Positions 1 to 60,323 of a DNA stretch of 64,000 bases are shown here, piece by piece. A program made the translations under genes and the position numbers. The notes beneath the pieces are model-generated. The model was not told where the DNA came from. It worked only from the letters and a program-made list of their open reading frames with translations, and did no database searches. The number at the start of each line of letters is the position of its first letter. The stretch's first letter is position 1. Source of the stretch: a virus; IMG/VR virus record IMGVR_UViG_3300045988_177228, positions 1-64,000 of that record, one strand, 5' to 3'.

Positions 1-29
1 GGAAGGAACAGCGAGAGCATAATCGAACG

Positions 30-167
30 CTACATAGACGAACAACAACAGGCAGGGCGATTCATCCGCGACACTGAAGATGACGCGGCTTTCTCGCCAA
101 AACAAAAAAGGTAAACGAGGTTGGCAGTCCACTTTTTGGTAAGACTGTTGATTGCGTCGTTGTCCAT
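30..167 (-). CDS. small hypothetical protein (46 aa)
   Basis: ATG at 167 follows M1-box 191-212 and RBS-like agaaggagaaacc. ORF runs to 30. Odd Cys-rich C-terminus, so weak. Confidence 0.3.
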   Translation of the reverse strand: MDNDAINSLTKKWTANLVYLFCFGEKAASSSVSRMNRPACCCSSM

Positions 168-190
168 GGTTTCTCCTTCTCGGCATATCT

Positions 191-212
191 TGTGTGAACA
201 ATTCCAGTATAG
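191..212 (-). promoter_or_regulatory. M1-box copy (tgtgtgaacaattccagtatag), 25 nt upstream of the gene starting at 167
   Basis: Near-identical 22-mer recurs at least 15 times in the window, always 5' of a gene and in the gene's orientation. Contains a TAnAnT -10-like hexamer. Confidence 0.7.
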
Positions 213-327
213 CCTAAGTTGAGATAAAACACAACACGCAACCAAGCCAAAACGAAGACGCAATCCCCGCCCATACGAAAAAAAGGAATACGCCCACATG
301 ATTTTCCTGCGGGCGTATTCCCATGTT

Positions 328-636
328 TTAGTTCAGAAGTCCGGAGCGATACAGAATCCTGCGGATATTGATGCTGTGGACGAAAGCGGTGTCAGGCTGT
401 CCAACGAAGTCGGCAAGCTGCTCGTCGGAGCAAGTCTCGTCAACGGCGGCATCCAAAACCACCTCGGTCGGAGAGTCGAACATCCTACAGCCGACGCCGT
501 CATGCCCCTCAATGTGCTCGAACAAGGCGAAGTATGTCATGTTCTCGTCTGCAACACGCAACATGACATAGGAGGTATTGCCGTTGTGGAAGATGTTGTA
601 GTCTGCTGCGCCGAATCGTGCGAAATACTCGTTCAT
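328..636 (-). CDS. hypothetical protein (103 aa), paralog of 6129..6443
   Basis: ATG at 636 with RBS after M1-box 658-680. Shares FGA(A/E)DYNIF(H/A)NGN(T/K)SYVM...LFEH(I/V)EG with the 6129..6443 product. The longer track ORF reads through the motif. Confidence 0.6.
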   Translation of the reverse strand: MNEYFARFGAADYNIFHNGNTSYVMLRVADENMTYFALFEHIEGHDGVGCRMFDSPTEVVLDAAVDETCSDEQLADFVGQPDTAFVHSINIRRILYRSGLLN

Positions 637-657
637 TTTGGCTCTTTCTCTCATATT

Positions 658-680
658 TGTGTGAACAATTCCAGTATAGC
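658..680 (-). promoter_or_regulatory. M1-box copy
   Basis: tgtgtgaacaattccagtatagc, upstream of gene start at 636. Confidence 0.7.
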
Positions 681-813
681 ATATTTGAGAGAAAGAGCAA
701 AAACACAAAACACAAAAAGCCGCGCAAACGCAAAAGCATCCACACGACTCGATATTTTTTCACCACTATACGGAGGGCGGTGCGGTTCCCTCCGCCGCAG
801 TAGGTGCTACCGA

Positions 814-1110
814 TTAGTCGTAGTCCGACGGTTCACCATTGACATAGTTCCAAAACTGGTCGAAGGCATATTGCGCGGTATCCTCATACCGGCATGGCTT
901 CGGCTGTGCGTTCTTTTCCTGCTCTTTCTGCTCTATCAACTGGTCTATTTGGCTTTGCTCATTGCGGTGCTGCCATGAAAGTGGTTCGTTGCCTTGGGCT
1001 AGGTTCTCATACACCGTGTATTCGTGCCCGCGATAGCTGTAGACAAGATAGACCATATGTGCGTCGTATCCGTGCCCGTAGTATTTTCTGATAAATGTCG
1101 CTTTTCGCAT
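814..1110 (-). CDS. hypothetical protein (~98 aa)
   Basis: ORF with internal ATG at 1110 preceded by gaaaggga RBS, 11 nt after stop of the upstream gene (1122). Codon usage consistent with neighbours. Confidence 0.45.
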   Translation of the reverse strand: MRKATFIRKYYGHGYDAHMVYLVYSYRGHEYTVYENLAQGNEPLSWQHRNEQSQIDQLIEQKEQEKNAQPKPCRYEDTAQYAFDQFWNYVNGEPSDYD

Positions 1111-1121
1111 TGCTATCCCTT

Positions 1122-2042
1122 TCAACCAATCTCGCGCTCGGCACGCTCCCAAATCTTCCGGCGAATCTCACTATCCTTGGAAAACATGGAGCCAAGCTCC
1201 AACACTTGACGGACGGCTTCGCGGTATTCCTCCAAACGGTCATGCAAGGCCATATACGCGTCGCTTTCGAAAGCCTGATTGATGAACGAGTCCGGCATGT
1301 CACGCATGACCTTGACCAGCCTGTAACGTCCCACCTCGTCCGCGTTCTCCCAAGCGTTCATGACACGCTCACAAGTGGCCCACTGCGGCTTGCAGGCCAG
1401 CACATGCGCCACATCCTGCGGGTTAAGACGGGACAACACTTCATCCACCTTGCCGTCTTCGGTCAGAAGAGCCGCCTGAACGCGAATCTGACTGTTGGGA
1501 TTGTCCAGCCAATGTTCGACACATTCCTTATCGAAGTTATGGTTATAGATAAGGGTTTTGACCACACGCTCGTCCGACTCCTCGAAGAAGAGGTGAGGGT
1601 CTGCGTTCTTTGCCGCCATGAGTCGAATCTGATAATCCTCGTCGTGGGACAAACCGTTCGACGTTTCCTTGTCGAGCTTGCTGAACTTGTTGAGCATTGT
1701 GGCCGCTTTCTTGCGAATCTCGGCGCTCCTGTCATGTAGGGCCACTTTGGATAGTTCCTTGACGGGTAGTTTCTTTTCGTCGTATACGCGCCAGTCGAAG
1801 TAGTAGTTACGGACTTTCAGGGGTAGTTCGGAGAGTTTGCCGGAGTTGAAATGCTGTCTGATGTTGGCGAGTTCGTCTTCGCCTGTTTGGGTGAGAGTCC
1901 AGTCGCCCGTCTCGTTTTCCTGAATGAGTCCGGCTTTGGCGAGTTTGGTGATGTCGCGGTCGGGGAATACTCGGCGTTCGGGTTCGCGCTCGAATCGCAT
2001 GAATTCGTAGACTGCGGTTTCGTTCCAGTTGATGTCGCTCAT
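1122..2042 (-). CDS. HEAT/LRV-like helical repeat protein (~307 aa)
   Basis: Long ORF. ATG at 2042 with AAGGAG RBS immediately after M1-box 2079-2100. Repetitive helical DExxxIRxxAA motifs. No catalytic motif recognised. Confidence 0.6.
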   Translation of the reverse strand: MSDINWNETAVYEFMRFEREPERRVFPDRDITKLAKAGLIQENETGDWTLTQTGEDELANIRQHFNSGKLSELPLKVRNYYFDWRVYDEKKLPVKELSKVALHDRSAEIRKKAATMLNKFSKLDKETSNGLSHDEDYQIRLMAAKNADPHLFFEESDERVVKTLIYNHNFDKECVEHWLDNPNSQIRVQAALLTEDGKVDEVLSRLNPQDVAHVLACKPQWATCERVMNAWENADEVGRYRLVKVMRDMPDSFINQAFESDAYMALHDRLEEYREAVRQVLELGSMFSKDSEIRRKIWERAEREIG

Positions 2043-2078
2043 TTTTTGCTCCTTGGCTTCCATATTTTTGTGTGAACA

Positions 2079-2100
2079 ATTCCAGTATACAATTTGCTTG
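2079..2100 (-). promoter_or_regulatory. M1-box copy
   Basis: tgtgtgaacaattccagtatac directly 5' of the gene start. The track ORF N-terminus MSKQIVYWNCSHK is a translation of the box. Confidence 0.7.
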
Positions 2101-2185
2101 GACAAAACACGCTACAAAACAAAAAGCGGGAACTACAGCAACAAGAGTGTGATGCAAGGCTTCCTTTCTTTTTGCCGAATATGAG

Positions 2186-2224
2186 AGAAGTAGAAGGAAG
2201 TAGTAATACGGCAGTCTTCCAATT
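2186..2224 (-). repeat. 39-bp conserved element R39, copy A (reverse orientation)
   Basis: Reverse complement aattggaagactgccgtattactacttccttctacttct matches 28802-28840 and 56102-56137 at about 36 of 39 positions. Confidence 0.7.
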
Positions 2225-2234
2225 TTAGCGTGGG

Positions 2235-2531
2235 TCAGAGGATTCGGGTTCCCTTGCGGGTGACGAGCATGATTCGGTTTTCGTGGCGGTTCTCGAAAAC
2301 GTCCCAGTTGCCGCTCAGGACAGCCAAGCACGCGTTGCCTTTGATGAGGTTCCAACGTTCGTCGCAGTTGGATACGACGTGCTTCCAGTTGGTTGGGTTG
2401 GGCTTGTGGTGGGAGGTTTCCACGATGGCTTCGGTCATGGGCTTGTCGGCGTAGGCGTGGTCGTAGGTGTTGTCGCTTGCGACGATGCTGATGGTGCCGT
2501 TGTCGAATGCGATTGGCTGGATGGTGTTCAT
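2235..2531 (-). CDS. hypothetical protein (98 aa)
   Basis: ATG at 2531 with aaaggagaaaac RBS. Degenerate M1-box at 2580-2602. Confidence 0.55.
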   Translation of the reverse strand: MNTIQPIAFDNGTISIVASDNTYDHAYADKPMTEAIVETSHHKPNPTNWKHVVSNCDERWNLIKGNACLAVLSGNWDVFENRHENRIMLVTRKGTRIL

Positions 2532-2579
2532 GTTTTCTCCTTTTGTTGTTGTGGGGACGAACCCTTTTTGTGTGGACAT

Positions 2580-2602
2580 GACCACTATAACACATGGTCT
2601 GA
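2580..2602 (-). promoter_or_regulatory. degenerate M1-box (tgtgtggacatgaccactataac)
   Basis: 17 of 23 match to consensus, same position relative to gene start. Confidence 0.3.
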
Positions 2603-2701
2603 AATATCACAATACGAAAAACAAAAAATGCCGACCAGCGCCTAGAAGCGGAAGACCAAGCCGCAAAAGCTAAACCCGTCGAATCCAACGGGTTTGGAAT
2701 C

Positions 2702-3025
2702 TCAGGAAATCAGTTGCCAAATCAGCCAGCCGACCAACCCCCACAGTACGAGCACCCCAATCGCATACATCCACGTGCCCGCGTATCCGCCCGCGAGGAA
2801 CGCGCTCATCCGACGTTTCCGTTGCTCCAGCAGTGCGTACCATTCGCTCTCGCAACGGTCGAACATGTCCGCGTCCATGCGGGTGCCGCCGTACATGTCG
2901 AGCCAATCGCGCACGGTCGGCATGGGACCCAACGGGTCACGCAGACGGGCGTGCGGTATGAGGGCTATTTTCAACCCCTGCCACATGCCCTTGAGGAAGA
3001 ACGCGGGTAGCCTGTCCCCGGTCAT
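2702..3025 (-). CDS. hypothetical protein with C-terminal transmembrane helix (108 aa)
   Basis: ATG at 3025 overlaps the stop of the upstream small gene (ATGA). Hydrophobic C-terminus IGVLVLWGLVGWLIWQLIS. Confidence 0.5.
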   Translation of the reverse strand: MTGDRLPAFFLKGMWQGLKIALIPHARLRDPLGPMPTVRDWLDMYGGTRMDADMFDRCESEWYALLEQRKRRMSAFLAGGYAGTWMYAIGVLVLWGLVGWLIWQLIS

Positions 3026-3190
3026 GACAGCTCCCCGCATGGTTCGACGGTTTGCCTCAGCCCCCGTTCGACCAGTGCTCTCACCGCCGCGTTCCACGTG
3101 AGTTCGTTATCGTCGGCGTATTGCATGGTCTGCCGGTACAGGTCGGCGGGCATCTGTATTACTCGGCTTACGTTTGGCGTCTTCAGCATT
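3024..3190 (-). CDS. small ribbon-helix-helix-like protein (55 aa)
   Basis: Not in ORF track (<60 aa). ATG at 3190 with taggagacaacc RBS. Product MLKTPNVSRVIQMPADLYRQTMQYADDNELTWNAAVRALVERGL resembles CopG/RHH antitoxin-type DNA binders. Confidence 0.45.
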
Positions 3191-3202
3191 GTAGGTTGTC
3201 TC

Positions 3203-3379
3203 CTATCGGAATATGCGGGCGAGCGAGTCCGCGTCTATATATCGGCGGTGCATGACCTTGTAGGTGCGGATTCGTCCTGCCTTGATGAGGTCGTACACGT
3301 GCTGGCGGGAGCAGTGCAGGTACACCATGGTGTCCGCGATGGTGAGGATGGTGGGCAGTTCCTTGTTATTGGCGCTCAT
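3203..3379 (-). CDS. excisionase-family / MerR-like HTH DNA-binding protein (58 aa)
   Basis: MSANNKELPTILTIADTMVYLHCSRQHVYDLIKAGRIRTYKV is a typical HTH_17/Xis-type helix-turn-helix. Start overlaps stop of 3376..3684. Confidence 0.6.
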   Translation of the reverse strand: MSANNKELPTILTIADTMVYLHCSRQHVYDLIKAGRIRTYKVMHRRYIDADSLARIFR

Positions 3380-3684
3380 GACCTGACCCCCAGTGCCGTG
3401 GCGACGGCCATGTGCAGGCGGTCGGCGTCCAGCTTGTCCAAGGTCTGCGGGGCGAGTGTGGCGGGCATGGTGTTGGCCGCGTCCGGTGTGTTGTAGATGC
3501 CGCCGGTCCACAGGTGGCGTCCGTCGGGGAGGGGTTTTTCCTTGGCGGTGTAGAACCATACGCCTTCGCCCAGTGTGAAGGTGATGTTGACGCCGTTGTG
3601 GTCGGGGGTGGGTTCGGCGTCCTTTATGCGGGGGTCGTCGGTGAGCTGGTCGAAGAGTCGTTCGTAGATGGTTTTGCGAATCAT
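3376..3684 (-). CDS. hypothetical protein (102 aa)
   Basis: ATG at 3684 with aaaggagaaaagc RBS downstream of M1-box 3717-3739. Confidence 0.6.
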   Translation of the reverse strand: MIRKTIYERLFDQLTDDPRIKDAEPTPDHNGVNITFTLGEGVWFYTAKEKPLPDGRHLWTGGIYNTPDAANTMPATLAPQTLDKLDADRLHMAVATALGVRS

Positions 3685-3716
3685 GGTGCTTTTCTCCTTT
3701 GTTGCGTCAACTCTTT

Positions 3717-3739
3717 ATGTGAACAATTCCAATATAGCA
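3717..3739 (-). promoter_or_regulatory. M1-box copy (tatgtgaacaattccaatatagc)
   Basis: Motif recurrence. Confidence 0.65.
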
Positions 3740-3816
3740 CGTTTGGATAAACATACAAAACAAGACACGTCCACACAAAAAGCCCCGCCAAAACGACGGG
3801 GCCACAATCCTGAAAA

Positions 3817-4017
3817 CTAACGATTCATACTCAATCGAACTTCAACCGCGACGGTCAGCAACACCACCGTAATGGCGCACACGGATACGATACCGAACGT
3901 GCGGCCAAACGTGAACAGCCAAGTGCCGAACGAGTAGATGCCGAACGCGACTGCGGTTGCCACCCCACCGAAAGCGATGGTGACAAGCGTCATAAGCAGA
4001 ACATCCTTGATATGCAT
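3817..4017 (-). CDS. small membrane protein (66 aa, two TM helices)
   Basis: ATG 4017 with aaaggagaaaa RBS after M1-box 4057-4078. Hydrophobic throughout. Confidence 0.5.
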   Translation of the reverse strand: MHIKDVLLMTLVTIAFGGVATAVAFGIYSFGTWLFTFGRTFGIVSVCAITVVLLTVAVEVRLSMNR

Positions 4018-4056
4018 TTTTTCTCCTTTTGGTGATGGGTTTTACGAACCCTTGTT

Positions 4057-4078
4057 TGTGTGAACAATTCCAGTATAC
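4057..4078 (-). promoter_or_regulatory. M1-box copy
   Basis: tgtgtgaacaattccagtatac. Confidence 0.7.
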
Positions 4079-4150
4079 ATCATGTTGGGTACGACACGCC
4101 AAACAAAAAGCGCCCCACCCATCCAAGGGAGAGGCGCTAAAACCCGACGG

Positions 4151-4528
4151 TCAGAACTCATACTCGCAATCGGAATCGAGATACCATTTGTCGCCGTAAC
4201 CCCAAAGAACACGACGGATGGTCGCAGGGTCGTTCAGCTCAACGAACTTGGACGCCAGTTCATCCACCGACTTGGCGGAAAAAGCCTTGCCGACGGAAGC
4301 GTAGAATTCATCCCATTCCGCCTGTTCGGCGTCGGAATCGACCAGCTCACGGAACCGTCCGGCAAGCTTCTCGTCCGGTAGTGTCGCTTCCGCAAAATTC
4401 GTGTCCTCTATATCCGACCAAGCGCCGAAACACTTGTCGGCCAACGATTCAACCGGAATGGTGAGGATGCTGGAATACGTGCCCTTCCAAGCGTTCTTCT
4501 TGAAGAAGCTAACGTCTCGTGCCTTCAT
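4151..4528 (-). CDS. acidic hypothetical protein (125 aa)
   Basis: ATG 4528 with aggagg RBS. Strongly acidic (D/E-rich). Confidence 0.55.
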   Translation of the reverse strand: MKARDVSFFKKNAWKGTYSSILTIPVESLADKCFGAWSDIEDTNFAEATLPDEKLAGRFRELVDSDAEQAEWDEFYASVGKAFSAKSVDELASKFVELNDPATIRRVLWGYGDKWYLDSDCEYEF

Positions 4529-4541
4529 TTTCCCGTTCCTC

Positions 4542-5036
4542 CTATTCTTCCTCGCCATCCGCCTGACGGAGTGGAACGATACGGTTCCACTGTTCCGTGT
4601 ATTCATTCTCCACATCCTTGGAACCATTGTCCAGCAGTTCGTTCAAAGTGGCTCGTCCTACGTCGCTGAGACGGCTGATGCTGCGGAGAATGCTCGCCAC
4701 GTCGTCGGCTTCGTATAGTTTATTGCGATTGTCCGACAGTTCCTGATACTTCGAGTCGGTGAGGTTCCAAACATAGTCTTCCAGCAGTTTCCAGTCCTCC
4801 TTTTCGGCAGAGGGTACTGGAATCGGCTTGGTGAGCCGCCAATCTTCGAGAATGTCCGCCCAAAGGTCGGTCTTGACATTGTATTCGCCAAGGTCTTCCT
4901 CGTGGGTGAGTTTTTCGATTCGCTGTTCTTCGCCATCCTCGTCCAAGTAGTCTATTGTGAGATATTCCCTATCCACTGACAAGGTGGAGAGTTCGCGTAG
5001 TTTGGTGATTTTGAGGTTGACGATTGTGTTAATCAT
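4542..5036 (-). CDS. very acidic hypothetical protein (164 aa), candidate DNA-mimic/anti-restriction-type protein
   Basis: ATG 5036 with caaggagg RBS after M1-box 5068-5090. About 30% D/E. The ArdA-like idea rests on size and charge only, no motif match. Confidence 0.55.
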   Translation of the reverse strand: MINTIVNLKITKLRELSTLSVDREYLTIDYLDEDGEEQRIEKLTHEEDLGEYNVKTDLWADILEDWRLTKPIPVPSAEKEDWKLLEDYVWNLTDSKYQELSDNRNKLYEADDVASILRSISRLSDVGRATLNELLDNGSKDVENEYTEQWNRIVPLRQADGEEE

Positions 5037-5067
5037 TTTTTGTTCCTCCTTGTTGGAATCTATTTTT

Positions 5068-5090
5068 TGTGTGAACAATCCCAGTATACC
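5068..5090 (-). promoter_or_regulatory. M1-box copy
   Basis: tgtgtgaacaatcccagtatacc. Confidence 0.7.
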
Positions 5091-5150
5091 ATGTTTGTTG
5101 TGAAAAACAAAAACAGCCCACTCCCCAAAGCAAGGAAGCGGGCTGAAAAG

Positions 5151-5975
5151 TCAGGCATTCAGCAAAGCGTGGGACGAAACACCCATTTCAGACAAACCCA
5201 AACCCACATTGTTCGCGTCACTCACACCACGGGCAAAACCATCCTTGCTACCACGAGCAGTGGCCGCATGACCCGACACCAGCTCAAGCTTGTCAAAATA
5301 CTCGTTCAGACGCTGACTCTTACATGACACCAGCTCACGACCGGAAGGAATGGCGAGACTCTGCTTGCGAAGCTCCTCGAAACGTTCGCTCAAACGTTCG
5401 TTGAATCCACCGCGATAACCATAGTAGAACTTGGCGCGTGGATAATCACGACGCATGTACTGTTTGCATTCCGTCAGCGTCGGATAGGATTCATGTCTGT
5501 AATGCGTTTCGACGTATTCCTTGTTGTTCTCATAGTACGCTTTGGCGTGCTGGTCAATCATGTCCGCGTAGCTGGTGCGGGCGTGGATTGAGCAGTATAG
5601 GTCGATGCTTTGGAAGAGAATGACTGCGGCGTTCACATCGTCCTCCTCGCCTACGAACATGACGGCACGTTCCTCAATCCTTCCGCCACACCGGCTTTCG
5701 TGAAGGTAGGTGCGGCATTCGTTAGCTTGGGCGATGATGGTCGCAAGGTAGCCTTGCTGATGGTAGATGGTGGTTTTGCTTACGTTCACGCCACGTTCGA
5801 TGATTGGCTTGTTCGTGCGGGTGCGGTCGCGTTTCCAGTCTTCGATACGATATTCGTTAATGAGTTTCTGTGCCCGCTCGAACGCCATTTGCGCCTCATT
5901 GTCGCTGGAAGCTTCGTTTTCGGCTATTGCCATGAGGTTGTTGATGCGTTCGATGATGCTGTCGATGTTGCTCAT
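5151..5975 (-). CDS. DUF2786-like protein (274 aa)
   Basis: ATG 5975 with caaggagc RBS after M1-box 6006-6027. N-terminus IIERINNLMAIAENEASSDNEAQMAFERAQKLINEYRI matches the DUF2786 signature (..KLLALAEST.NE.EA.AA..KAQELM.KY.I) seen in phage and plasmid proteins. Confidence 0.55.
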   Translation of the reverse strand: MSNIDSIIERINNLMAIAENEASSDNEAQMAFERAQKLINEYRIEDWKRDRTRTNKPIIERGVNVSKTTIYHQQGYLATIIAQANECRTYLHESRCGGRIEERAVMFVGEEDDVNAAVILFQSIDLYCSIHARTSYADMIDQHAKAYYENNKEYVETHYRHESYPTLTECKQYMRRDYPRAKFYYGYRGGFNERLSERFEELRKQSLAIPSGRELVSCKSQRLNEYFDKLELVSGHAATARGSKDGFARGVSDANNVGLGLSEMGVSSHALLNA

Positions 5976-6005
5976 TTTTTGCTCCTTGGTTTTCTTTTAT
6001 CTCTT

Positions 6006-6027
6006 TGTGTGAACAATCCCAGTATAC
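6006..6027 (-). promoter_or_regulatory. M1-box copy
   Basis: tgtgtgaacaatcccagtatac. Confidence 0.7.
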
Positions 6028-6128
6028 AGCGTGTGAAAAAAACGACACACCCAAAAACTATAAACAACCTCTGAAAAAACAAACCCCTCCAACCTATAAG
6101 GGAAGGAAGAGAACTGTTACAGAATCGC

Positions 6129-6443
6129 TCAGGCGTCCAAGTGGGAATGACGCAGAAGCCTACGAACATTGATATTGTGGACAAACCTATCCTGACCGAC
6201 AATCCTCGAAGCAAACTCCCTATCGGTATATCCACCGTCGGAAACACCGTCCAAAACAGTCTCGGGAATATTGTCTAACATGTAATAGCTGACGCCGGTC
6301 TGACCCTCGACATGCTCGAAAAGCATGTAGTAGACGCCCTCGGGGTCGTCGATGAAACGGCTCATGACATACGACTTGTTGCCATTGGCGAAGATGTTGT
6401 AGTCCTCTGCGCCGAACTGCTTGAAGTATGCGGGCTTATTCAT
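6129..6443 (-). CDS. hypothetical protein (104 aa), paralog of 328..636
   Basis: ATG 6443 with caaggagaaaaaa RBS after M1-box 6473-6494. Paralogous to the 328..636 product. Confidence 0.65.
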   Translation of the reverse strand: MNKPAYFKQFGAEDYNIFANGNKSYVMSRFIDDPEGVYYMLFEHVEGQTGVSYYMLDNIPETVLDGVSDGGYTDREFASRIVGQDRFVHNINVRRLLRHSHLDA

Positions 6444-6472
6444 TTTTTTCTCCTTGGTTTTTCAACTTTTTT

Positions 6473-6494
6473 TATGTGAACGATTCCAGTATAC
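6473..6494 (-). promoter_or_regulatory. M1-box copy
   Basis: tatgtgaacgattccagtatac. Confidence 0.7.
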
Positions 6495-6729
6495 TCCAAG
6501 CGTGGAAACAATACAAAAAAAGAGGAACGGAAACCGAAACGGGAACCGTCCCTCAATGCCTTTTAGAAAGTGACCTATTATCTCAAACAAGATTATCTTG
6601 ATTACTTCTGTTTAGGCTGTCAACCTCTACTTTCGACAAATCCCACCCATTATCGAACTCAGCCCTTTAGTACATGCTTTTTTAAAGTATTATACTTATT
6701 ATAATTATTATAAAATCAAGGAAACAGAC

Positions 6730-51327: not shown

Positions 51328-51349
51328 TATACTAGAAGCGTTCACACAA
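51328..51349 (+). promoter_or_regulatory. M1-box copy (ttatactagaagcgttcacaca)
   Basis: 30 nt upstream of ATG 51380. Confidence 0.65.
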
Positions 51350-51379
51350 TAACAGAAAAAGCCAGCCAAGGAGAAAAAC

Positions 51380-51751
51380 ATGAGCAACTACTTCAACAGC
51401 ATCGAACATCAAATCAACCTCATGCTCGACAGGGAACAAGACCTCCAAGACGAACAGGAACAGCGTCTACGGGACATTCACGACGGCATTGGGGACTACG
51501 TGCTGTTGCCCGAAGGCGACCCGTGGAACATCGATGACTACGAGCAAGACCCACGGCCCACCAACGTCAACAACACTTGCAGTCACGGACTCTATGTTGA
51601 CGAAGGTGTGAAATCTGGAACCATGTATCATCTCAACCCCGACCTTGGACTGTGGGCGGCTTGTGACGACTACGAGGACATAGAAAAAATGGTCAGGGAA
51701 GGCAAGACGCTCACCCAGCCCATTGACGATTACGATTCGAAGCTCGCCTGA
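51380..51751 (+). CDS. acidic hypothetical protein (123 aa)
   Basis: aaggagaaaaacATG. Confidence 0.6.
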   Translation: MSNYFNSIEHQINLMLDREQDLQDEQEQRLRDIHDGIGDYVLLPEGDPWNIDDYEQDPRPTNVNNTCSHGLYVDEGVKSGTMYHLNPDLGLWAACDDYEDIEKMVREGKTLTQPIDDYDSKLA

Positions 51752-51795
51752 GAAAGAATTTTTCCTACAACCTTCCTTGTTTGCGAAAAACTACG

Positions 51796-51819
51796 TTATA
51801 GTGGAACCAGTCACAAACA
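51796..51819 (+). promoter_or_regulatory. M1-box copy (ttatagtggaaccagtcacaaaca)
   Basis: Upstream of TTG 51835. Confidence 0.55.
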
Positions 51820-51834
51820 AGGAAGGTTTCTTTT

Positions 51835-52167
51835 TTGAACACCGAAACGGACATCACGGACAGTCAAAACCAACAACGTTCCCGTCCGCGCAAAGACCTT
51901 GACACCGTAGGCGGATTCCTTGACTCCTGCAAGGACGAGACGCCAATCCTGCTTTACTTCAACACAAACGACGGAATACAAAGAATCCCCCACATCCTAG
52001 GAGACCCGCCTACCGTCGGACAACTCCGACTCAACAAATATCTGCGGCCACTGAAAATCCAACGAAGAGTCCGCTACCAGATTGCCGGAACCAGCGACAC
52101 CGGCTGGGTCATCCGGGTCGATGAACGATTCAAGAAAAAGAAATACGTCAAAGCGTCGAAAGCCTGA
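51835..52167 (+). CDS. hypothetical protein (110 aa)
   Basis: TTG start after aaggaaggtttc RBS. Confidence 0.45.
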   Translation: MNTETDITDSQNQQRSRPRKDLDTVGGFLDSCKDETPILLYFNTNDGIQRIPHILGDPPTVGQLRLNKYLRPLKIQRRVRYQIAGTSDTGWVIRVDERFKKKKYVKASKA

Positions 52168-52192
52168 ATCCTTGGAATATCAGAACAACACC

Positions 52193-52921
52193 GTGAACAA
52201 AAACTGCCTATACTCCAACGGAGACCGGGAAGCGGTCTTGCAGACCATCTTCCGTAGGGGAGTCCTCCCACAGGTCGTGGTGTACGCGCTCGGACTACTG
52301 GTGGCGGTATGGCTCCTCGCATATTCGAACTCCCTGACGGGAGGATGGAAAATCATCTTCCTGTTCCTGTCCATCCTGAACTTCGTGTCCGGAATCCGTG
52401 GACTTGTCAAGGTCGGCGTCAACTGGACGACGCTCCGTGACTGCGCGTATCCGAACATCGACGCGAACGCGGCTGAAACATGGGATTTGGCGGTATGGCT
52501 CGCCAACAGTCCGCAATTCGGAGGAACCCCAATCCGGGATATGCGACAGCAGGAACTACGTGAGGCATTGGATGAGTACGGGACACTGTTCCAAGCGAAC
52601 AATCCCGAAGACGTGACCGTCCAACTGAACCGGTTGGAACGGCTCATGCACGAAGTGGATTGGACGGGCCAATACGTTCATGCGCTCCTTCTATTCCGAC
52701 AGTTGAAAGACTCGCATCTCAAATATTGGAGCCAACTGGACGAAGCCTACCGTCAAACGTTAATAAAACTGACGTCAGGCATGCGTTTGGAAAACCTAAG
52801 CGAAGACGTGCAACTCTCCCCACACCGCATGGTCATCTTGGACGGATTGCAGATTAACTGCGGACTGCATGGTACCGCAGGAAAATACACCGTCGGCTAC
52901 GAGGACGGCGGAGTCCTGTGA
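52193..52921 (+). CDS. membrane protein (~240 aa), start uncertain
   Basis: In-frame GTG at 52193 after previous stop (52167). Alternative ATG 52121 overlaps the upstream gene. Two TM helices then soluble domain. Confidence 0.45.
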   Translation: MNKNCLYSNGDREAVLQTIFRRGVLPQVVVYALGLLVAVWLLAYSNSLTGGWKIIFLFLSILNFVSGIRGLVKVGVNWTTLRDCAYPNIDANAAETWDLAVWLANSPQFGGTPIRDMRQQELREALDEYGTLFQANNPEDVTVQLNRLERLMHEVDWTGQYVHALLLFRQLKDSHLKYWSQLDEAYRQTLIKLTSGMRLENLSEDVQLSPHRMVILDGLQINCGLHGTAGKYTVGYEDGGVL

Positions 52922-53235
52922 ACTATCAGATGCTACGGGACGCTCGCACCGGACGAATCCACCTGTTCTCCAACAATTGTTGGATGCTTAGGGATTGGGT
53001 GGCGAAAAACATCGGATTGGACGAGAACGGCGTAGCTCTCATACGCAGACTCGACCTGTTGGAAATGGAAAAATACTCCACCAAAATGATGGACAATCCC
53101 GAATCGTCCAGTGAGGAATACTGGCAAGCCAAAACCATGCATGACGGCATCGTCAAAACGTTCGAGGAACTATCACCTGTCGCACGAATCGAATACTGGG
53201 ACTGTTTTAACGACACTCCCGTCAACATCCTCTGA
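52918..53235 (+). CDS. hypothetical protein (105 aa)
   Basis: GTG overlapping previous stop. Confidence 0.5.
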   Translation: MNYQMLRDARTGRIHLFSNNCWMLRDWVAKNIGLDENGVALIRRLDLLEMEKYSTKMMDNPESSSEEYWQAKTMHDGIVKTFEELSPVARIEYWDCFNDTPVNIL

Positions 53236-53273
53236 TTTTAGAAAAAAACACAAAACCTCTGAAAGGAGCAGCA

Positions 53274-53717
53274 TTGGACGAACAATCCTCCACCCAACGT
53301 TTCCGTGTTCTCATGGCCGGTATCAGCGAAGGTGAGACCAGAATCCTCTACAACATCGAAAAAGGAAGGTTGACCGCCGACATTCTCAAAAGCAACATCG
53401 GCAGACGACTGCTGGATGCCGGACTCATCCGACGTAACGGGCAATCGGCCCCGTCCCTCACCAAGGATGGCATACGTCTCGTATCCACGCTCGCCCAAGG
53501 CGAGGCAGACCGTCCAATCCGACTATACGAGCGCAACGGCGAAACGCTGCTCCGCCAAGCCGGACAGGGAACGGCCAACGCATACAAGACCGGTTTCGAA
53601 AACGCCGCCATCGAACTGCTGAACGACAAGCTGGTTCGCCTCGACATCGCAACAGGTGCTCTGACGCTGCTTCCTGCGGGACGGGAACTATTGGAACGAC
53701 TGGAGCAGACGTCTTGA
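53274..53717 (+). CDS. hypothetical protein (147 aa)
   Basis: gaaaggagcagcaTTG start. Confidence 0.5.
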   Translation: MDEQSSTQRFRVLMAGISEGETRILYNIEKGRLTADILKSNIGRRLLDAGLIRRNGQSAPSLTKDGIRLVSTLAQGEADRPIRLYERNGETLLRQAGQGTANAYKTGFENAAIELLNDKLVRLDIATGALTLLPAGRELLERLEQTS

Positions 53718-54670
53718 AGCCTTGGTTCCAAGACGACACGCTGACGCTCTATCTGGGCGACGCATCGTCCGTGCTTCCCGATTTGCCCGACGGAAGCGTC
53801 GATTGCATCGTCACCAGTCCGCCGTACTACGGGTTGCGTCAATACACGGATTCCGAACTGGAAATCGGACGCGAACCCACACCCGGCGGCTATGTGGAAG
53901 ACCTCAGCAAAGTATTCCGCGAATGCAGACGAATCCTAGCCGATGACGGCACGCTCTGGCTGAACTTGGGTGACACGTACTCCACGCCGAACCTGTGGGA
54001 CGGCGGCGACGAGTCGGAGACCAGCATCGGATTGCACGGACATGCGCAGAAACCGAACGGCAGAAAACGTCCAGACCGTCCGGCGAAGAACCTGCTCGGC
54101 ATCCCGTGGAGAGTGGCGTTCGCATTGCAGGATGACGGTTGGATATTGCGCTCGGATATCATTTGGGGAAAAACCAATCCCATGCCGGAAAGCGTGAAAG
54201 ACCGTCCAAGCAAAAGCTACGAGCATATTTTTCTATTCTCCAAAACCGAAAAATACTATTACGACTACCAGTCCGTAAGACAACGGCAGTCGGAGAAAAC
54301 CATTGAGGATTTAGCTCACCGGCATACGCTCGGCAACAAAAGCGCATATGGTGGCGTCCGCGAGGATTTGGGAAGAGACCGTAGGGAATACGTGGCATCG
54401 GACGGCAGACGAAACCTACGCGACGTGTGGATGTTGCCGACCCGCCCGTATGCGGGAGCGCATTTTGCGGCTTTTCCGTTGGATATTCCCCTCACATGCA
54501 TTCAGGCCGGTTGCAAGCCGGGCGGCGTGACGCTCGACCCGTTCAACGGTTCCGGTACCACCGGGTTGGCGGCTGCGATGCTGGGGTGTAGGTATGTCGG
54601 TGTTGATTTAAACGAACAATATTTGGAATTGAGTCTGCGAGACCGTCTGAATCAGCCTGCGTTCGTATAG
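53714..54670 (+). CDS. DNA methyltransferase, beta-class amino-MTase (N4-C or N6-A)
   Basis: Motif IV VTSPPYYGL before motif I LDPFNGSGTT. TTG overlapping previous stop. No adjacent restriction endonuclease recognised. Confidence 0.85.
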   Translation: MKPWFQDDTLTLYLGDASSVLPDLPDGSVDCIVTSPPYYGLRQYTDSELEIGREPTPGGYVEDLSKVFRECRRILADDGTLWLNLGDTYSTPNLWDGGDESETSIGLHGHAQKPNGRKRPDRPAKNLLGIPWRVAFALQDDGWILRSDIIWGKTNPMPESVKDRPSKSYEHIFLFSKTEKYYYDYQSVRQRQSEKTIEDLAHRHTLGNKSAYGGVREDLGRDRREYVASDGRRNLRDVWMLPTRPYAGAHFAAFPLDIPLTCIQAGCKPGGVTLDPFNGSGTTGLAAAMLGCRYVGVDLNEQYLELSLRDRLNQPAFV

Positions 54671-54684
54671 GAGATTGGAAAAAA

Positions 54685-54888
54685 ATGCTGTCGTTATTAT
54701 CACAACAGAATGTGCTTATCGCATTGGCTGTGGGAGCTATCATATTGGCGCTCATGTTCCTTGTGTCCGCATTGGAAGACTTGTTGGGTAGTGATACGAG
54801 ACTAGGGGAGTTGTGCGGTCGCAGGAACCTGAGATGGGCTGTGGTCATTCTGACCATCGTGGCGGTTCTCACGGTAGTGGTCATCTGA
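54685..54888 (+). CDS. small membrane protein (67 aa)
   Basis: gagattggaaaaaaATG. Two TM helices. Confidence 0.45.
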   Translation: MLSLLSQQNVLIALAVGAIILALMFLVSALEDLLGSDTRLGELCGRRNLRWAVVILTIVAVLTVVVI

Positions 54889-54896
54889 CTTTTCTG

Positions 54897-54926
54897 ACTG
54901 GGGCGGCGTCGAGTCGCCCCTTTTTT
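54897..54926 (+). terminator. rho-independent terminator
   Basis: GGGGCGgcgtcgagtCGCCCC followed by TTTTTTATTTT. Confidence 0.75.
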
Positions 54927-54975
54927 ATTTTCGGAATCGTGGATTTGAGTTTTCAGGCAATCACTTAACCTATGC

Positions 54976-54997
54976 TATATTGGAATCGTTCACATAA
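54976..54997 (+). promoter_or_regulatory. M1-box copy (ctatattggaatcgttcacata)
   Basis: 20 nt upstream of ATG 55017. Confidence 0.65.
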
Positions 54998-55016
54998 GCA
55001 GACGTAAAGGAAAACC

Positions 55017-55274
55017 ATGAACCAAAAAGTCCTCATCGCTCTCAACAACGGAGCGAAACGTATCGTATACCGTGACGACCTCTGCCACGAGCTGGCCGAC
55101 CTGCTCCGGCTCTACCTGCACGCCGACGCGTTGCCGGGAACAGGGGAACGTTGGGAACTGTTGAGGACGCTTGCATCCACTCTCATTGGTCGCGCTGTCG
55201 AAAAAGGGCTTTTTGAGGACTGCGCCCGCGTGAACGTGTATCCGGTTTCTTTTCAAATGGTTCAGCCTGATTGA
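55017..55274 (+). CDS. hypothetical protein (85 aa)
   Basis: aaaggaaaaccATG. Confidence 0.55.
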   Translation: MNQKVLIALNNGAKRIVYRDDLCHELADLLRLYLHADALPGTGERWELLRTLASTLIGRAVEKGLFEDCARVNVYPVSFQMVQPD

Positions 55275-55293
55275 CGTATTCAACAAACTGAGT

Positions 55294-55317
55294 TACAGTG
55301 GAACTGTTCACACATAT
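55294..55317 (+). promoter_or_regulatory. M1-box copy (ttacagtggaactgttcacacata)
   Basis: 22 nt upstream of ATG 55339. Confidence 0.65.
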
Positions 55318-55338
55318 AGACCCAAAGGAGAAAACCAA

Positions 55339-55602
55339 ATGACCGTCAACGAACTCATAGAACAATTGAAGAACCTACCCAAGGAAGTATGCGAACAACC
55401 CATCATGAACGGCAAGCCGAACGTAGGCTACCGGCTAGCCGGTCTTCACGCAATTTCAGCCGCCAAGGTCATTGTATCCGACGACGGCGTTTGCAACGTG
55501 TACGACCCGGAGCTTTCCGACGAGGAAAACGTAACAGAGTTGGAAAACCGATATGGCATGCCAATGCATGTCGAGCATCGAGTGCTGGCGTTCTTCGATT
55601 GA
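55339..55602 (+). CDS. hypothetical protein, MTVNELIEQLKNLP family member 1 (87 aa)
   Basis: aaaggagaaaaccaaATG. N-terminus paralogous to the 57386 and 57610 products. Confidence 0.6.
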   Translation: MTVNELIEQLKNLPKEVCEQPIMNGKPNVGYRLAGLHAISAAKVIVSDDGVCNVYDPELSDEENVTELENRYGMPMHVEHRVLAFFD

Positions 55603-55612
55603 GAAAGGTTCT

Positions 55613-56074
55613 ATGAAAATGGACGCGCACACTCCTATCAATATTCCCATCCGTCTCGAACAGTGGCTCAAAGGCGACAACGTTTTAGATGTCGAAACAA
55701 TCATCATCGACGCCCGGCCAATCCTAGACGCAACCGATTTCGACAATCTTCCCGAATGGGAGGATTGGGATGCGGACTTCATCGCGGAGGACGCTCAAAG
55801 AATCGGACTGCTGAAAATGTGGTCTGGGCCATTCACGGTCGAACTGTTTAATTGCGACGAGTATCCCGACTATCTCGAATGGCGTAAAACCCATAAGACC
55901 ATTGAGGGTGCCGCAGAACATATCCTCGACTTGAGCAAGAAGGAATTGCAACGGCGAATCGAAGAAACCAAGAAGCAACTCGACAAGTATGTTAGCCAAT
56001 ATGAGGCATTATGCGAGGAACAGTATCCGCGTCAAACTTCTGGAACGGAACTGGTTGGCAGACTACTCGTCTAA
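55613..56074 (+). CDS. hypothetical protein (153 aa)
   Basis: gagaaaggttctATG. Acidic. Confidence 0.55.
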   Translation: MKMDAHTPINIPIRLEQWLKGDNVLDVETIIIDARPILDATDFDNLPEWEDWDADFIAEDAQRIGLLKMWSGPFTVELFNCDEYPDYLEWRKTHKTIEGAAEHILDLSKKELQRRIEETKKQLDKYVSQYEALCEEQYPRQTSGTELVGRLLV

Positions 56075-56101
56075 CATCCGAAGGGAAAAAGGAAAGCCAA
56101 A

Positions 56102-56137
56102 GATTGGAAGACTGCCGTATTCATACTTGCTTCTACT
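56102..56137 (+). repeat. R39 element copy C
   Basis: gattggaagactgccgtattcatacttgcttctact. Confidence 0.7.
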
Positions 56138-56195
56138 CTGTTGGACATGGCCCGCGCCATGGGTGGTCACAGCTACGACGAGATGTGGCGGGCCA
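56138..56195 (+). other. duplicated fragment of the 5' end of gene 56512..56880
   Basis: tggacatggcccgcgccatgggtggtcacagctacgacgagatgtggcgggccaacg is about 85% identical to 56556-56612 (tggatatggcccgtgctatgggtggctacggctacgacgagatgtggtgggctgacg). Confidence 0.6.
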
Positions 56196-56252
56196 ACGCT
56201 TTGCCGGGCATAATCGGGTCGGCCTGTACGACGAACAAGGAAAGGTTTTTTA

Positions 56253-56510
56253 ATGTCGGTTGATTCGATTCTCTCATTGGTGGGCCTGCTGTTCGCTGTT
56301 CTGGGTGTGCTGGCCACTCTCATCTCCTACGCCTTCGGTTTGGAGTGGGCGGACGTTCTAGTTCCGTTCTGTTTCTTCGTTCTGCTGGTCTGTCAGATGG
56401 TGCGACTTGTCTGCTATCGGGAAACCGACGCGCTGGCTCCCATGGCGACAGCAGGATTTGCCGTCATCATCTGGCTGGTGGCTCTCACGCGGCGGAACGG
56501 AGGTTCTTGA
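56253..56510 (+). CDS. small membrane protein (85 aa)
   Basis: Three hydrophobic helices. Stop 1 nt before next ATG. Confidence 0.45.
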   Translation: MSVDSILSLVGLLFAVLGVLATLISYAFGLEWADVLVPFCFFVLLVCQMVRLVCYRETDALAPMATAGFAVIIWLVALTRRNGGS

Positions 56511-56511
56511 A

Positions 56512-56880
56512 ATGATTGACATGCAGGACACTGAGGAAAATCGTTGGCTACTGCTGGATATGGCCCGTGCTATGGGTGGCTACGGCTACGACGAGATGTG
56601 GTGGGCTGACGTTTTTGAGCCGGACGAATTGGAGTATTCCGCTCCCGACTTGTATGAGAAGTTCGTCAACTCGTCCGACTATGACCCTGCCGCTCACTGG
56701 TTCCGTCGTAAGGAATACGGTGTCGGTTTCAAGTCGGTCACGGACGAGAGCCTGTTGGCGGATGCTTGGCATATGCGGGATGATATTGTCGAATTGGCTT
56801 CTCGTAGGGATGTGTGGCTGAATATTCCGGATATCGATTTTGTTTCGTGTATTCGGAAGCTTGGGGTTGTGGTTTCTTAG
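56512..56880 (+). CDS. hypothetical protein (122 aa)
   Basis: ATG 56512 (MIDMQDTEENRWLLLDMARAMGGYGYDEMWW). Its 5' coding segment is partially duplicated upstream. Confidence 0.55.
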   Translation: MIDMQDTEENRWLLLDMARAMGGYGYDEMWWADVFEPDELEYSAPDLYEKFVNSSDYDPAAHWFRRKEYGVGFKSVTDESLLADAWHMRDDIVELASRRDVWLNIPDIDFVSCIRKLGVVVS

Positions 56881-56905
56881 GATTATTTCCCTGAATATTT
56901 CATGC

Positions 56906-56927
56906 TATACTGGAAACGTTCACAAAA
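56906..56927 (+). promoter_or_regulatory. M1-box copy (ctatactggaaacgttcacaaa)
   Basis: 21 nt upstream of ATG 56948. Confidence 0.65.
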
Positions 56928-56947
56928 AAGTTTTCAGAAGGAGCAAA

Positions 56948-57382
56948 ATGGGCAACATCGAAACACTCGTCACACCCATCCCAAAGGGCCAGACGAAAAA
57001 TGCAACCACGGAAAAGGCCATCGTCATCTCCTACAGTTCGAACGGCCACTACCGTGAGCGAATCTTCTCCAAGGAATCCTATACAAGTGGCAGTTCATGC
57101 TATCGGAACGGAGCATATTATCTGGATGCACTTCTCGGCGGACAACTCGACTGGGAGTCCGTGGAAGCCGCAGGTTTCGACTCGACAGCCGGATTGAAAG
57201 CCTACGCCATCAAGGACGGAGTTCCCTTGTGGCATTGGGTTCTGACTGACGGCACCGTCATAACCTCAATACAACAGTTCGAATACTGCAAGTTCTCAAT
57301 GGCTAAAATCAAAACATTGGATGGCCGGAATGTAATCCTGAACATGTCGAACGTCCTGTACGCGACCACTGACGAGAAGTGA
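56948..57382 (+). CDS. hypothetical protein (144 aa)
   Basis: gaaggagcaaaATG. Confidence 0.6.
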   Translation: MGNIETLVTPIPKGQTKNATTEKAIVISYSSNGHYRERIFSKESYTSGSSCYRNGAYYLDALLGGQLDWESVEAAGFDSTAGLKAYAIKDGVPLWHWVLTDGTVITSIQQFEYCKFSMAKIKTLDGRNVILNMSNVLYATTDEK

Positions 57383-57385
57383 GGT

Positions 57386-57601
57386 ATGGGAATGACGGTG
57401 AACGAGCTTATAGAAAAACTCCAAAAACTCACGCCGGAAGAACGAGAACTTCCCGTATGCAACTATTCGTTGCTTGACCCATATGCCATCAACGAATTCG
57501 AATACTATGACGAAATAGTCGATGAAGTGCATGTGGACGAGATTACTAATCCCGCTAATTCAGAACTGACGGTGGGTGAAAAAGCCGTGTTTTTAAGGTA
57601 G
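57386..57601 (+). CDS. hypothetical protein, MTVNELIE family member 2 (71 aa)
   Basis: gaggtATGggaATG. N-terminus MTVNELIEKLQKLTPEERELPV. Confidence 0.5.
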   Translation: MGMTVNELIEKLQKLTPEERELPVCNYSLLDPYAINEFEYYDEIVDEVHVDEITNPANSELTVGEKAVFLR

Positions 57602-57609
57602 GAACAAAA

Positions 57610-57828
57610 TTGACCGTGCAAGAACCCATCAAAGCGCTTCAAAACCTTCCAGCAGAATCCCAGAACCGTCCGGTCTGTGTGGCCGTAGCCTCGAACGACC
57701 CTAACGGTATCCCCTATTCGGAATACCGTCTGGGAGATTCCTCGAAAGTGGAGGAACGATATTCCGAATGCGGGGGAGGGAGAACCGCAGTGGTTCTTCC
57801 CGCAGTGATGGACGAGGTTGTTAAATAG
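57610..57828 (+). CDS. hypothetical protein, MTVNELIE family member 3 (72 aa)
   Basis: TTG start. LTVQEPIKALQNLPAESQNRPV. Confidence 0.4.
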   Translation: MTVQEPIKALQNLPAESQNRPVCVAVASNDPNGIPYSEYRLGDSSKVEERYSECGGGRTAVVLPAVMDEVVK

Positions 57829-57951
57829 AGGATTTGTTGACGACGACAGGAGGGAAGACAAACATGGTCGAGGAATACTGGAAACGTCTTTGCCGCTCGT
57901 TTAACAAGAAATACGTTCGTGAAATAGAGACGAGATTGCAGGAGAAAAACC

Positions 57952-58170
57952 ATGATGGTGAACGTCGTCATACTTGAAGACCAGTATGCGCCGGAGGAAT
58001 ACGAGATTGTCGGCGTATGTGATGACACGCATCTCAGGAACACATATGCGGAAGCTGTTAGAAGACATGTCGGGAACCCTGTTCTCGAATTCGAGCGACA
58101 TGACCGTGAGCGGGAAGCGCACTCGTACATTCATGTCACACGAATCGAAATGAACAAAACGAAGGAGTAA
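57952..58170 (+). CDS. hypothetical protein (72 aa)
   Basis: caggagaaaaaccATG. Partial M1-like sequence gaatactggaaacgtc at 57876-57892 upstream. Confidence 0.5.
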   Translation: MMVNVVILEDQYAPEEYEIVGVCDDTHLRNTYAEAVRRHVGNPVLEFERHDREREAHSYIHVTRIEMNKTKE

Positions 58171-58172
58171 CC

Positions 58173-59497: not shown

Positions 59498-59747
59498 CCA
59501 CGCTTACGATGTGGGTGGCGGCGAATGGTATTGCACCGACTGCTGCCACGGAAAAACTCACCCGTGTGCGGACTGTGATGCGCCCTCCCATTGGCGGTGC
59601 AAGGATTGCGGCAAATGGGTTTGCGAAAACCATTCGACATTCGTCACGGTTCAAGGTGAGGAATTCTATACTCTTTTCGGCTACTACTGCGATACTGATT
59701 TACGGTGGGAACTAGCGGAAGAACAAGCTAAGGAGGTGACGTTGTGA
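59388..59747 (+). CDS. Cys-rich zinc-binding hypothetical protein (119 aa)
   Basis: CVICN..CAVCG..CTDCC..CADCD..CKDCGKWVC: multiple CxxC pairs. Confidence 0.45.
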   Translation: MNENVNYHPLRRCVICNELVEADDPTCAVCGQPACSDHAYDVGGGEWYCTDCCHGKTHPCADCDAPSHWRCKDCGKWVCENHSTFVTVQGEEFYTLFGYYCDTDLRWELAEEQAKEVTL

Positions 59748-59941: not shown

Positions 59942-59981
59942 TATTTCGGCAAAAACAAGCACTAACCCAAAGGAATAAATC

Positions 59982-60236: not shown

Positions 60237-60288
60237 CCGCTCCTTTTCTGGGAGTGGCTTTTATTTTCCCATCCAGATGTTATAGTGG

Positions 60289-60310
60289 AATTGTTCACAA
60301 AAAAAATGGT
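60289..60310 (+). promoter_or_regulatory. M1-box copy (ttatagtggaattgttcacaaa)
   Basis: 14 nt upstream of RBS/ATG 60324. Confidence 0.65.
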
Positions 60311-60323
60311 TAAGGAGAAAAAT

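Follow-up and report, generated by a model that had tools for sequence, protein, structure and literature searches.

A promoter motif related to that of megaplasmid pMP7017 and a hypervariable array of small-gene cassettes on a putative Bifidobacterium-type plasmid

The DNA examined here, referred to throughout as the window, comprises positions 1 to 64,000 of IMG/VR record IMGVR_UViG_3300045988_177228, and its left end (1-6500) is occupied by small genes that all face the same way and lie behind copies of a single promoter-like motif. The question raised by this locus is what sort of region it is. The initial annotation, made from the sequence alone, proposed a candidate anti-defence island of the kind found in plasmid leading regions, and the description that underlies this proposal, namely modular, co-oriented, small and mostly orphan genes with shared promoters on a backbone of the conjugative plasmid type, was supported. 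However, the explanation that we prefer, with middling confidence, is a different one: positions 111-6500 would be where a long, hypervariable array of cassettes has its inner end, on a conjugative megaplasmid of approximately 220 kb from an uncultured Bifidobacterium-type lineage, and the cassettes would belong to a plasmid-wide regulon defined by the motif, which would include an operator.

The motif is represented by the 20-mer TATACTGGAATTGTTCACAC, which is matched 13 times in the window at no more than 3 mismatches, where 0.01 matches are expected by chance. A degenerate 14th copy (TATAGTGGTCATGTCCACAC) was found at 2570-2589, and its 3' half fits the variant present in pMP7017, a megaplasmid of Bifidobacterium breve. 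Nine copies lie in 1-6500 (minus strand), five in 51.3-60.3 kb (plus strand) and none in the 7-51 kb backbone. When the 14 sites were aligned on the motif, all of them were found to have a common architecture, consisting of a terminator hairpin, a T/G-rich stretch, TGn-TATACT, the block GGAATTGTTCACAC, an A-run, AAGGAG and ATG. The extended -10 (TGnTATACT) is fused to an invariant GGAATTGTTCACAC+AAA that extends across the predicted transcription start, a -35 is almost lacking, and the leader is 20-45 nt long and carries a strong ribosome-binding site (RBS), AAGGAG, with the ATG 22-45 nt past the block. Terminator-like hairpins are enriched (17 found, 7.4 expected), and they lie directly upstream of motif promoters. 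Related contigs supplied 402 distinct sites of the window variant, collected by their core with the flanks playing no part in the selection; across these sites, conservation is limited to the TGn, the -10 and the next 17 nt, and the -35 is reduced to a weak TT. Rfam (gathering threshold) and tRNA scans of the window gave no match and, hence, the conserved leader belongs to none of the known RNA families. Readings of the block as a LexA site (Cheo box) or a CRP-like site were rejected as the spacing of the half-sites does not fit. An 8-bp palindrome, TGT-N2-ACA, is present at the predicted transcription start in both lineage variants, as TGTTCACA here (for example at 661-668 in the window) and as ATGTCCACAT in pMP7017.

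A motif of this kind has been described before. In pMP7017, which is reported to be conjugative, Dineen et al. 2024 (PMC10832533) found a 34-bp promoter-overlapping motif, AWAYATGY-TATACT-GAATATGTCCACATAAAAWA, published as AWAYATGYTATACTGAATATGTCCACATAAAAWA, with 19 sites over promoter -10s and 56 genes (24% of the plasmid) predicted to be under its control; it is absent from bifidobacterial chromosomes and was interpreted by those authors as a probable transcription factor site. In our own scan, 23 copies of the pMP7017 variant were found scattered around the 190-kb plasmid on both strands, and they precede ssb, a DUF2786 gene, an operon with two adenine methylases and an operon ending in Lar; a 3'-5' exonuclease gene and WhiB are further genes behind it. 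The variant found in the window is essentially absent from the pMP7017 sequence. The two variants share the TGn-TATACT -10, a block of equal length and an A-run, they occur in many copies upstream of an RBS and small genes, and 9 of the 14 downstream positions are identical, including GT.CACA. Both are plasmid-specific, they are carried on collinear backbones and they drive homologous DUF2786 genes. They differ in the block, which is GGAATTGTTCACAC here and GAATATGTCCACAT in pMP7017, and the backbone proteins are only 45-58% identical; shuffling of cassettes at the motif is not described in the pMP7017 report (PMC10832533). Judged by this comparison of sequences, the motif of the window, termed "M1 box" in the initial annotation, is a lineage variant of the 34-bp pMP7017 motif and marks a plasmid-wide set of promoters, not one region. 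In kind the motif was already known, and what is new is a divergent lineage with its own uniform variant. A plus-strand copy near 120545 in pMP7017 (L348) lies just before a stretch of approximately 5 kb (~120.5-125.9 kb) without annotated protein genes, which may be the site of the tRNA genes reported for that plasmid.

The relationship to pMP7017 extends to the backbone. Using the full 190,178 bp of pMP7017, window positions 22.7-51 kb were found to be collinear with pMP7017 from 60 to 36 kb, at the amino acid identities given above, and the DnaB encoded in the window is nearest to that of pMP7017 (54% identity). The second array of motif-bearing genes in the window occupies the position of pMP7017's own array, which contains small genes, methylases and DUF2786. 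In contrast to this collinearity at the protein level, searching PLSDB at the nucleotide level with the array and with window 20-45 kb retrieved only a 114-nt insertion sequence (IS) match, which indicates a distant, uncultured lineage of the pMP7017 family. Only g12 and part of g05, among the genes in 1-6500 listed below, have homologs in pMP7017.

The features at the left end of the window, with the complete genes numbered g01 to g13, are as follows.

1..110, plus strand: 3' end of an IS200/IS605 element (end of tnpA), which cuts the array gene at 111-166
111..166, minus strand: truncated gene, first 19 codons (MDNDAINSLTKKWTANLVY...), g03 family
192..211, minus strand: motif promoter with 0 mismatches, for the truncated gene
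328..636, minus strand: g01, 102 aa, orphan, g13 paralog, no Pfam or PHROG match
659..678, minus strand: motif promoter for g01
814..1110, minus strand: g02, 98 aa, orphan, second gene of the g03-g02 unit
1122..2042, minus strand: g03, 306 aa, sub-threshold HEAT-like repeats, family recurrent in these arrays
2070..2089, minus strand: motif promoter for g03-g02
2235..2531, minus strand: g04, 98 aa, orphan
2570..2589, minus strand: degenerate motif promoter, for g04
2702..3025, minus strand: g05, 107 aa, candidate membrane protein (hydrophobic C-terminus)
3022..3189, minus strand: g06, 55 aa, possible ribbon-helix-helix (RHH) protein, unconfirmed
3203..3379, minus strand: g07, 58 aa, HTH_17 (Xis/AlpA-type) DNA-binding protein, E 2.2e-9
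3376..3684, minus strand: g08, 102 aa, orphan, opens a four-gene unit
3717..3736, minus strand: motif promoter for the g08-g05 unit
3817..4017, minus strand: g09, 66 aa, hydrophobic (grand average of hydropathy, GRAVY, 1.32)
4058..4077, minus strand: motif promoter for g09
4151..4528, minus strand: g10, 125 aa, acidic, isoelectric point (pI) 4.44, helical core predicted by a model, orphan family
4542..5036, minus strand: g11, 164 aa, acidic, pI 4.35, modelled three-stranded sheet with helices, orphan family
5069..5088, minus strand: motif promoter for g11-g10
5151..5975, minus strand: g12, 274 aa, DUF2786 and DUF7168, phrog_421
6007..6026, minus strand: motif promoter for g12
6129..6443, minus strand: g13, 104 aa, g01 paralog
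6474..6493, minus strand: motif promoter for g13, the innermost cassette

The single orientation noted initially was confirmed, every ORF (open reading frame) in 111-6500 being on the minus strand, but the count of twelve was not, as 13 ORFs are complete and a further one is truncated. Similarly, the repeated motif is present in nine copies, but not in front of each gene as had been stated: with nine promoters for 14 genes, five genes sit in operons with no promoter of their own. The eight complete transcription units are g13, g12, g11-g10, g09, g08-g07-g06-g05, g04, g03-g02 and g01, and ATGA overlaps are present at 3022-3025 and 3376-3379. The DUF2786-like protein of the initial annotation is g12 (DUF2786, 37.0 bits with a cutoff of 23.9; DUF7168, 34.8 bits with a cutoff of 25.5), which shares 30% identity with the product of the motif-driven DUF2786 gene of pMP7017, and the Xis-type helix-turn-helix protein is g07. 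Though the ATGA overlap of g06 with the gene for a candidate membrane protein was found as described, assignment of g06 to the RHH proteins was not upheld, as it has no Pfam match and its match to CopG in the PDB has an E value of 0.28. For the HEAT-repeat assignment of g03, the score of 22.2 bits is below the Pfam threshold of 23.5. The paralogy of g01 and g13 is clear (51% identity, E 5e-29), but this pair does not bracket the array because the arrays of sister contigs run at least 5 kb past the left edge of the window. Finally, g10 and g11 are acidic but not "very acidic", with net charges of -10 and -20, respectively, and a D+E content of 20-24%. Classic DNA mimics of the ArdA or Ocr type are more acidic than this. 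The g05 protein shares 45% identity over 49 aa with the product of the ORF adjoining Lar in pMP7017.

At its left end, the array is interrupted. Window positions 1-114 are 90% identical to the 3' end of tnpA in the Bifidobacterium longum plasmid NZ_CP084013, and BLASTN homology to the sister arrays begins at position 111. An intact, 148-aa version of the gene truncated here is found at 15444-15890 in the 222-kb sister scaffold L350, which includes the same array, with 13 motif cassettes over 12 kb, all co-oriented. The L350 array runs past the point at which the window is cut into a motif cassette encoding an ArdC-like protein (16848-17702). This protein, encoded in the sister scaffold and not in the window, contains both an ssDNA-binding ArdcN domain (48.2 bits, cutoff 22.6) and a C-terminal metalloprotease domain of the HExxH type (Peptidase_M78, 35.8 bits, cutoff 22, with the motif HETAH), the combination that defines ArdC, and a phmmer search of the PDB with it returned nothing significant. 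Multiple copies of the motif are found on contigs from IMG/VR (100-217 kb) and from human-gut metagenomes, and array genes are 85-99% identical on these motif-bearing contigs. A scan of 185,579 GTDB species-representative genomes yielded single chance matches only, among 80 of 107 stretches listed, and none in Bifidobacterium.

Comparison of window 1-8000 with the sister loci (BLASTN) revealed a mosaic. Considering internal ends of alignments of at least 80% identity and at least 200 nt, 76 of 91 (84%) lie no more than 100 nt from a motif, a zone that covers 30% of positions, and 20 of the 91 lie no more than 10 nt from one (5.6% of positions). In locus L214, exactly the g13 cassette is missing and the two alignment blocks have 73 nt in common at one promoter-leader region, and in L147 the promoter that drives g12 in the window is joined straight to g03. 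Within the window, a 47-nt repeat (2028-2074 and 5961-6007) is made up of leader, RBS and first codons. These alignments show that the approximately 70 nt that cassettes have in common (motif, leader, RBS and first codons) act as recombination points, where sister plasmids have lost, gained and re-joined cassettes. The arrangement corresponds to that of promoter-early stem-loops (PeSLs), mobile regulatory cassettes found in the hyperplastic regions of T4-type phages (PMC2839356, PMC4122927), in that a composite terminator-plus-promoter element separates small orphan ORFs and the junctions of indels and replacements between close relatives fall inside the conserved motif. However, the carrier here is an actinobacterial megaplasmid of the conjugative type and not a lytic phage, and the conserved part is a -10 with a start-site block, where PeSLs have a sigma70 early promoter that includes a -35.

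Each cassette is a unit made up of a terminator, the extended -10 with its block, a leader with the RBS and one to four small ORFs. We propose that the block is the operator of a plasmid-encoded regulator, seated on the start site, and that in a recipient free of the regulator the whole promoter set would fire jointly and then be damped. The same shared segment doubles as the recombination point for cassette turnover, and the cargo, mostly lineage-restricted orphans, would serve in the handling of incoming DNA and in counter-defence. The recombination part of this scheme is shown by the comparison with sister loci, and the regulatory part is one that we infer. The model for an operator common to many plasmid promoters, with a burst on entry followed by repression, is the global repressor network of R388 (ArdK, StbA and KorA), which produces a transcriptional overshoot and includes the ardC operon (PMC3937220), though neither the proteins nor the operators have a sequence relationship to those found here. 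A bolder version, in which the motif-bounded cassettes are a plasmid counterpart of PeSLs, serving as self-shuffling expression slots that undergo zygotic induction under one regulator and supply a large, quickly renewed arsenal with new anti-restriction or anti-CRISPR families (e.g. the acidic orphans g10 and g11, for which no known fold was found), appears unlikely.

Several points weigh against the explanation that we prefer. The pMP7017 motif came to light at six genes whose expression is high in carrier cells during log phase (PMC10832533) and, hence, its promoters are not simply off after establishment and their activity is not confined to entry. It is also found upstream of CRISPR-Cas I-E genes, SecE/G and sortase operons, so the regulon is not purely one for establishment. 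A regulator of the block was not identified, and the operator stays putative. Clustering of breakpoints between genes is partly expected in any gene-wise mosaic, and none of the 13 products encoded in 1-6500 has an anti-defence function that is homology-based or demonstrated.

The first two of these points would suit a simpler explanation, namely that the block is a strong, -35-independent promoter-plus-leader that has spread by duplication, with no dedicated regulation and with miscellaneous accessory or selfish genes as cargo. An extended -10 that is near consensus can function without a -35, the motif was discovered at genes highly expressed at steady state, the pMP7017 regulon is functionally mixed and more than 85% of the first-ORF families have no Pfam match. 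Nonetheless, we consider it somewhat unlikely, as 14-17 positions past the -10 are near-invariant across the 402 sites whereas the flanks drift to background, the palindromic core is common to both variants, and each lineage keeps its own internally uniform variant, which is hard to explain without a sequence-specific reader. A phage reading, with the array as early region of a jumbo phage or phage-plasmid and the motif as an early-promoter signal, is highly improbable. Contigs of 100-217 kb with multiple motifs are found in IMG/VR, g12 matches phrog_421 and the cassette architecture mirrors that of the T4-type PeSLs (PMC2839356), but the ORFs scanned include none for a capsid, portal, terminase or tail protein, the backbone matches in gene order that of a plasmid described as conjugative (PMC10832533), and genes for ParA, a RepA-like protein, DnaB, a sortase-pilus system and FtsK-type transfer are present. 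IMG/VR lists the contigs of this lineage (loci L109-L227, 100-217 kb) as viral, and this label is likely a misclassification given the collinear backbone and the lack of virion genes among the ORFs scanned.

The remaining possibility is that of the initial annotation, a true leading region that adjoins the origin of transfer (oriT), is the first part to enter and is read off the incoming single strand so as to neutralise host defences. Leading regions contain anti-defence islands adjoining oriT that are enriched in anti-defence (such as ArdC-like), SSB and methyltransferase genes (Samuel et al. 2024, PMC11541004). No such gene is recognisable in 1-6500 itself, but some likenesses exist: the small genes are strictly co-oriented, over at least 13 cassettes in L350, ArdC-like, methyltransferase and single-stranded DNA (ssDNA)-binding genes lie in the arrays or behind the same promoter type, the methyltransferase in the second array is without an identified restriction partner, and the same array in the sister plasmid includes an ArdC-like gene, the ArdC of R388 being needed in the recipient to overcome restriction (PMC7213743). 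However, no oriT, relaxase or transfer gene was found, either inside the window or in the 10 kb that flank it on each side, and for pMP7017 MOB-suite detected no relaxase and returned non-mobilizable, no oriT or relaxase being known for the family. The FtsK/SpoIIIE-lysozyme transfer module of this lineage (62% identity to its pMP7017 counterpart) is flanked by 10 kb without an array in both directions, and just one motif, with 4 mismatches, is present. The promoter type is found plasmid-wide and on both strands, the two arrays of the window diverge, and the motif promoters of pMP7017 face both ways; hence, a single transferred strand could not serve as template for all of them. Promoters of the Frpo/ssi type, which act on single strands through a long hairpin that recreates the -35/-10, were rejected, as 13 of the 14 promoter regions lack an ssDNA hairpin. 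When ssDNA folding was compared with shuffled sequences, only the region at 659-678 stood out (z = -3.5), the other 13 (z -1.65 to +1.5) being no better than the shuffles, and it is only this promoter, that of g01, whose motif is flanked by a 24-nt inverted repeat (636-659 and 680-703; 88% complementary). The leading-region label is, therefore, unsupported, and we regard this reading as distinctly unlikely.

Whether the products fit an establishment role, as the preferred cassette explanation would have it, can be judged from few genes. Pfam, PHROGs and PDB sequence searches of the array proteins found only DUF2786/DUF7168, HTH_17 and phrog_421. The PHROGs search covered 10 array proteins, with g12 as the sole match (phrog_421, of unknown function), while PADLOC was run on g12 alone among them and found nothing, and phmmer searches of the PDB with g12, g03 and g06 gave nothing significant. 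The families of g10 and g11 are confined to this lineage, and an exhaustive search with a g11 profile hidden Markov model recovered 20 relatives among 1.84 billion proteins, so that there are no remote annotated relatives. The acidic proteins had been described as DNA-mimic-like in composition, but neither g10 nor g11 resembles ArdA, Ocr, anti-CRISPR proteins (Acr) or Ssb in fold or sequence. Over the lineage as a whole, 31 first-ORF families were found behind motif promoters and four have a Pfam match, namely an RNase_T exonuclease, an Enc34-type ssDNA-binding protein, DUF3846 and a zinc ribbon. The recognisable genes behind this promoter type (ArdC-like, orphan methylases, ssb or Enc34-type ssDNA-binding, DnaQ-like exonuclease, Lar and DUF2786) suggest handling of incoming DNA and countering of host defences, and an anti-defence or establishment role is plausible for part of the cargo.

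Transformation of bifidobacteria is difficult owing to their restriction systems. The cassettes flag dozens of small orphan proteins as a tractable pool of candidates for counter-defence or establishment functions, and the promoter block could be a portable expression or regulation signal for Bifidobacterium genetics. The fact that a divergent lineage has retained a block variant of its own implies that a sequence-specific factor reads it, and recombination at the shared promoter offers a way in which the "substantial diversity in gene organisation" described in these plasmids could arise. Megaplasmids of the pMP7017 type were reported in approximately 10% of microbiome samples, the majority of these being from infants and mothers (PMC10832533).

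The second array, at the other end of the backbone, includes the following features.

51328..61052, plus strand: second cassette array, with motif starts at 51328, 54976, 55294, 56906 and 60281
53714-54670, plus strand: N6_N4 methyltransferase (E 1.2e-49), in the second array
61049-61896, minus strand: ImmA-like and XRE-like genes, beyond the second array

The strand and the methyltransferase, for which no restriction partner was identified and which looks to be an orphan, agree with what was noted initially, but the ImmA/XRE pair that had been included in this array lies outside it and on the opposite strand. The window also encodes a sortase, a SpaA-type pilin, a 1796-aa RCC1/SdrD surface protein, a flotillin, DnaB, two ParA-type ATPases, TnpB and a GmrSD_C protein. 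A RepA-like ORF at 45454-46323 (minus strand), between ParA and TnpB genes, is 34% identical to the RepA of pMP7017. Elements of the IS200/IS605 family are found at 1-110 and 48491-49753, with the TnpB gene between the backbone and the second array, and copies are numerous in pMP7017 and the B. longum plasmid. Facing the first array is a gene for an AAA_16/STAND-like ATPase (6730-7887, plus strand) that is 52% identical to a pMP7017 protein; it is 96-99% identical in sister contigs, yet found in just some of them.

Between the arrays, a sortase-dependent pilus cluster at 13031-21135 (minus strand), with the RCC1/SdrD surface protein, a class C-type sortase and the SpaA-type pilin, parallels that of pMP7017. 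An AAA ATPase at 28799-29851 (plus strand) matches the PADLOC model for IetA (E 9.5e-61), and may represent a candidate IetAS-type defence system on the plasmid backbone. A diversity-generating retroelement is located at 9855-13034 (minus strand), with a reverse transcriptase at 9855-11084, a template repeat at approximately 11265-11431 and a variable repeat at approximately 12054-12220, the latter forming the 3' end of an ORF (12054-13034) that is annotated as DUF6273 in sister contigs. All 15 differences between the template and variable repeats in alignment columns 10-163 are at template adenines.

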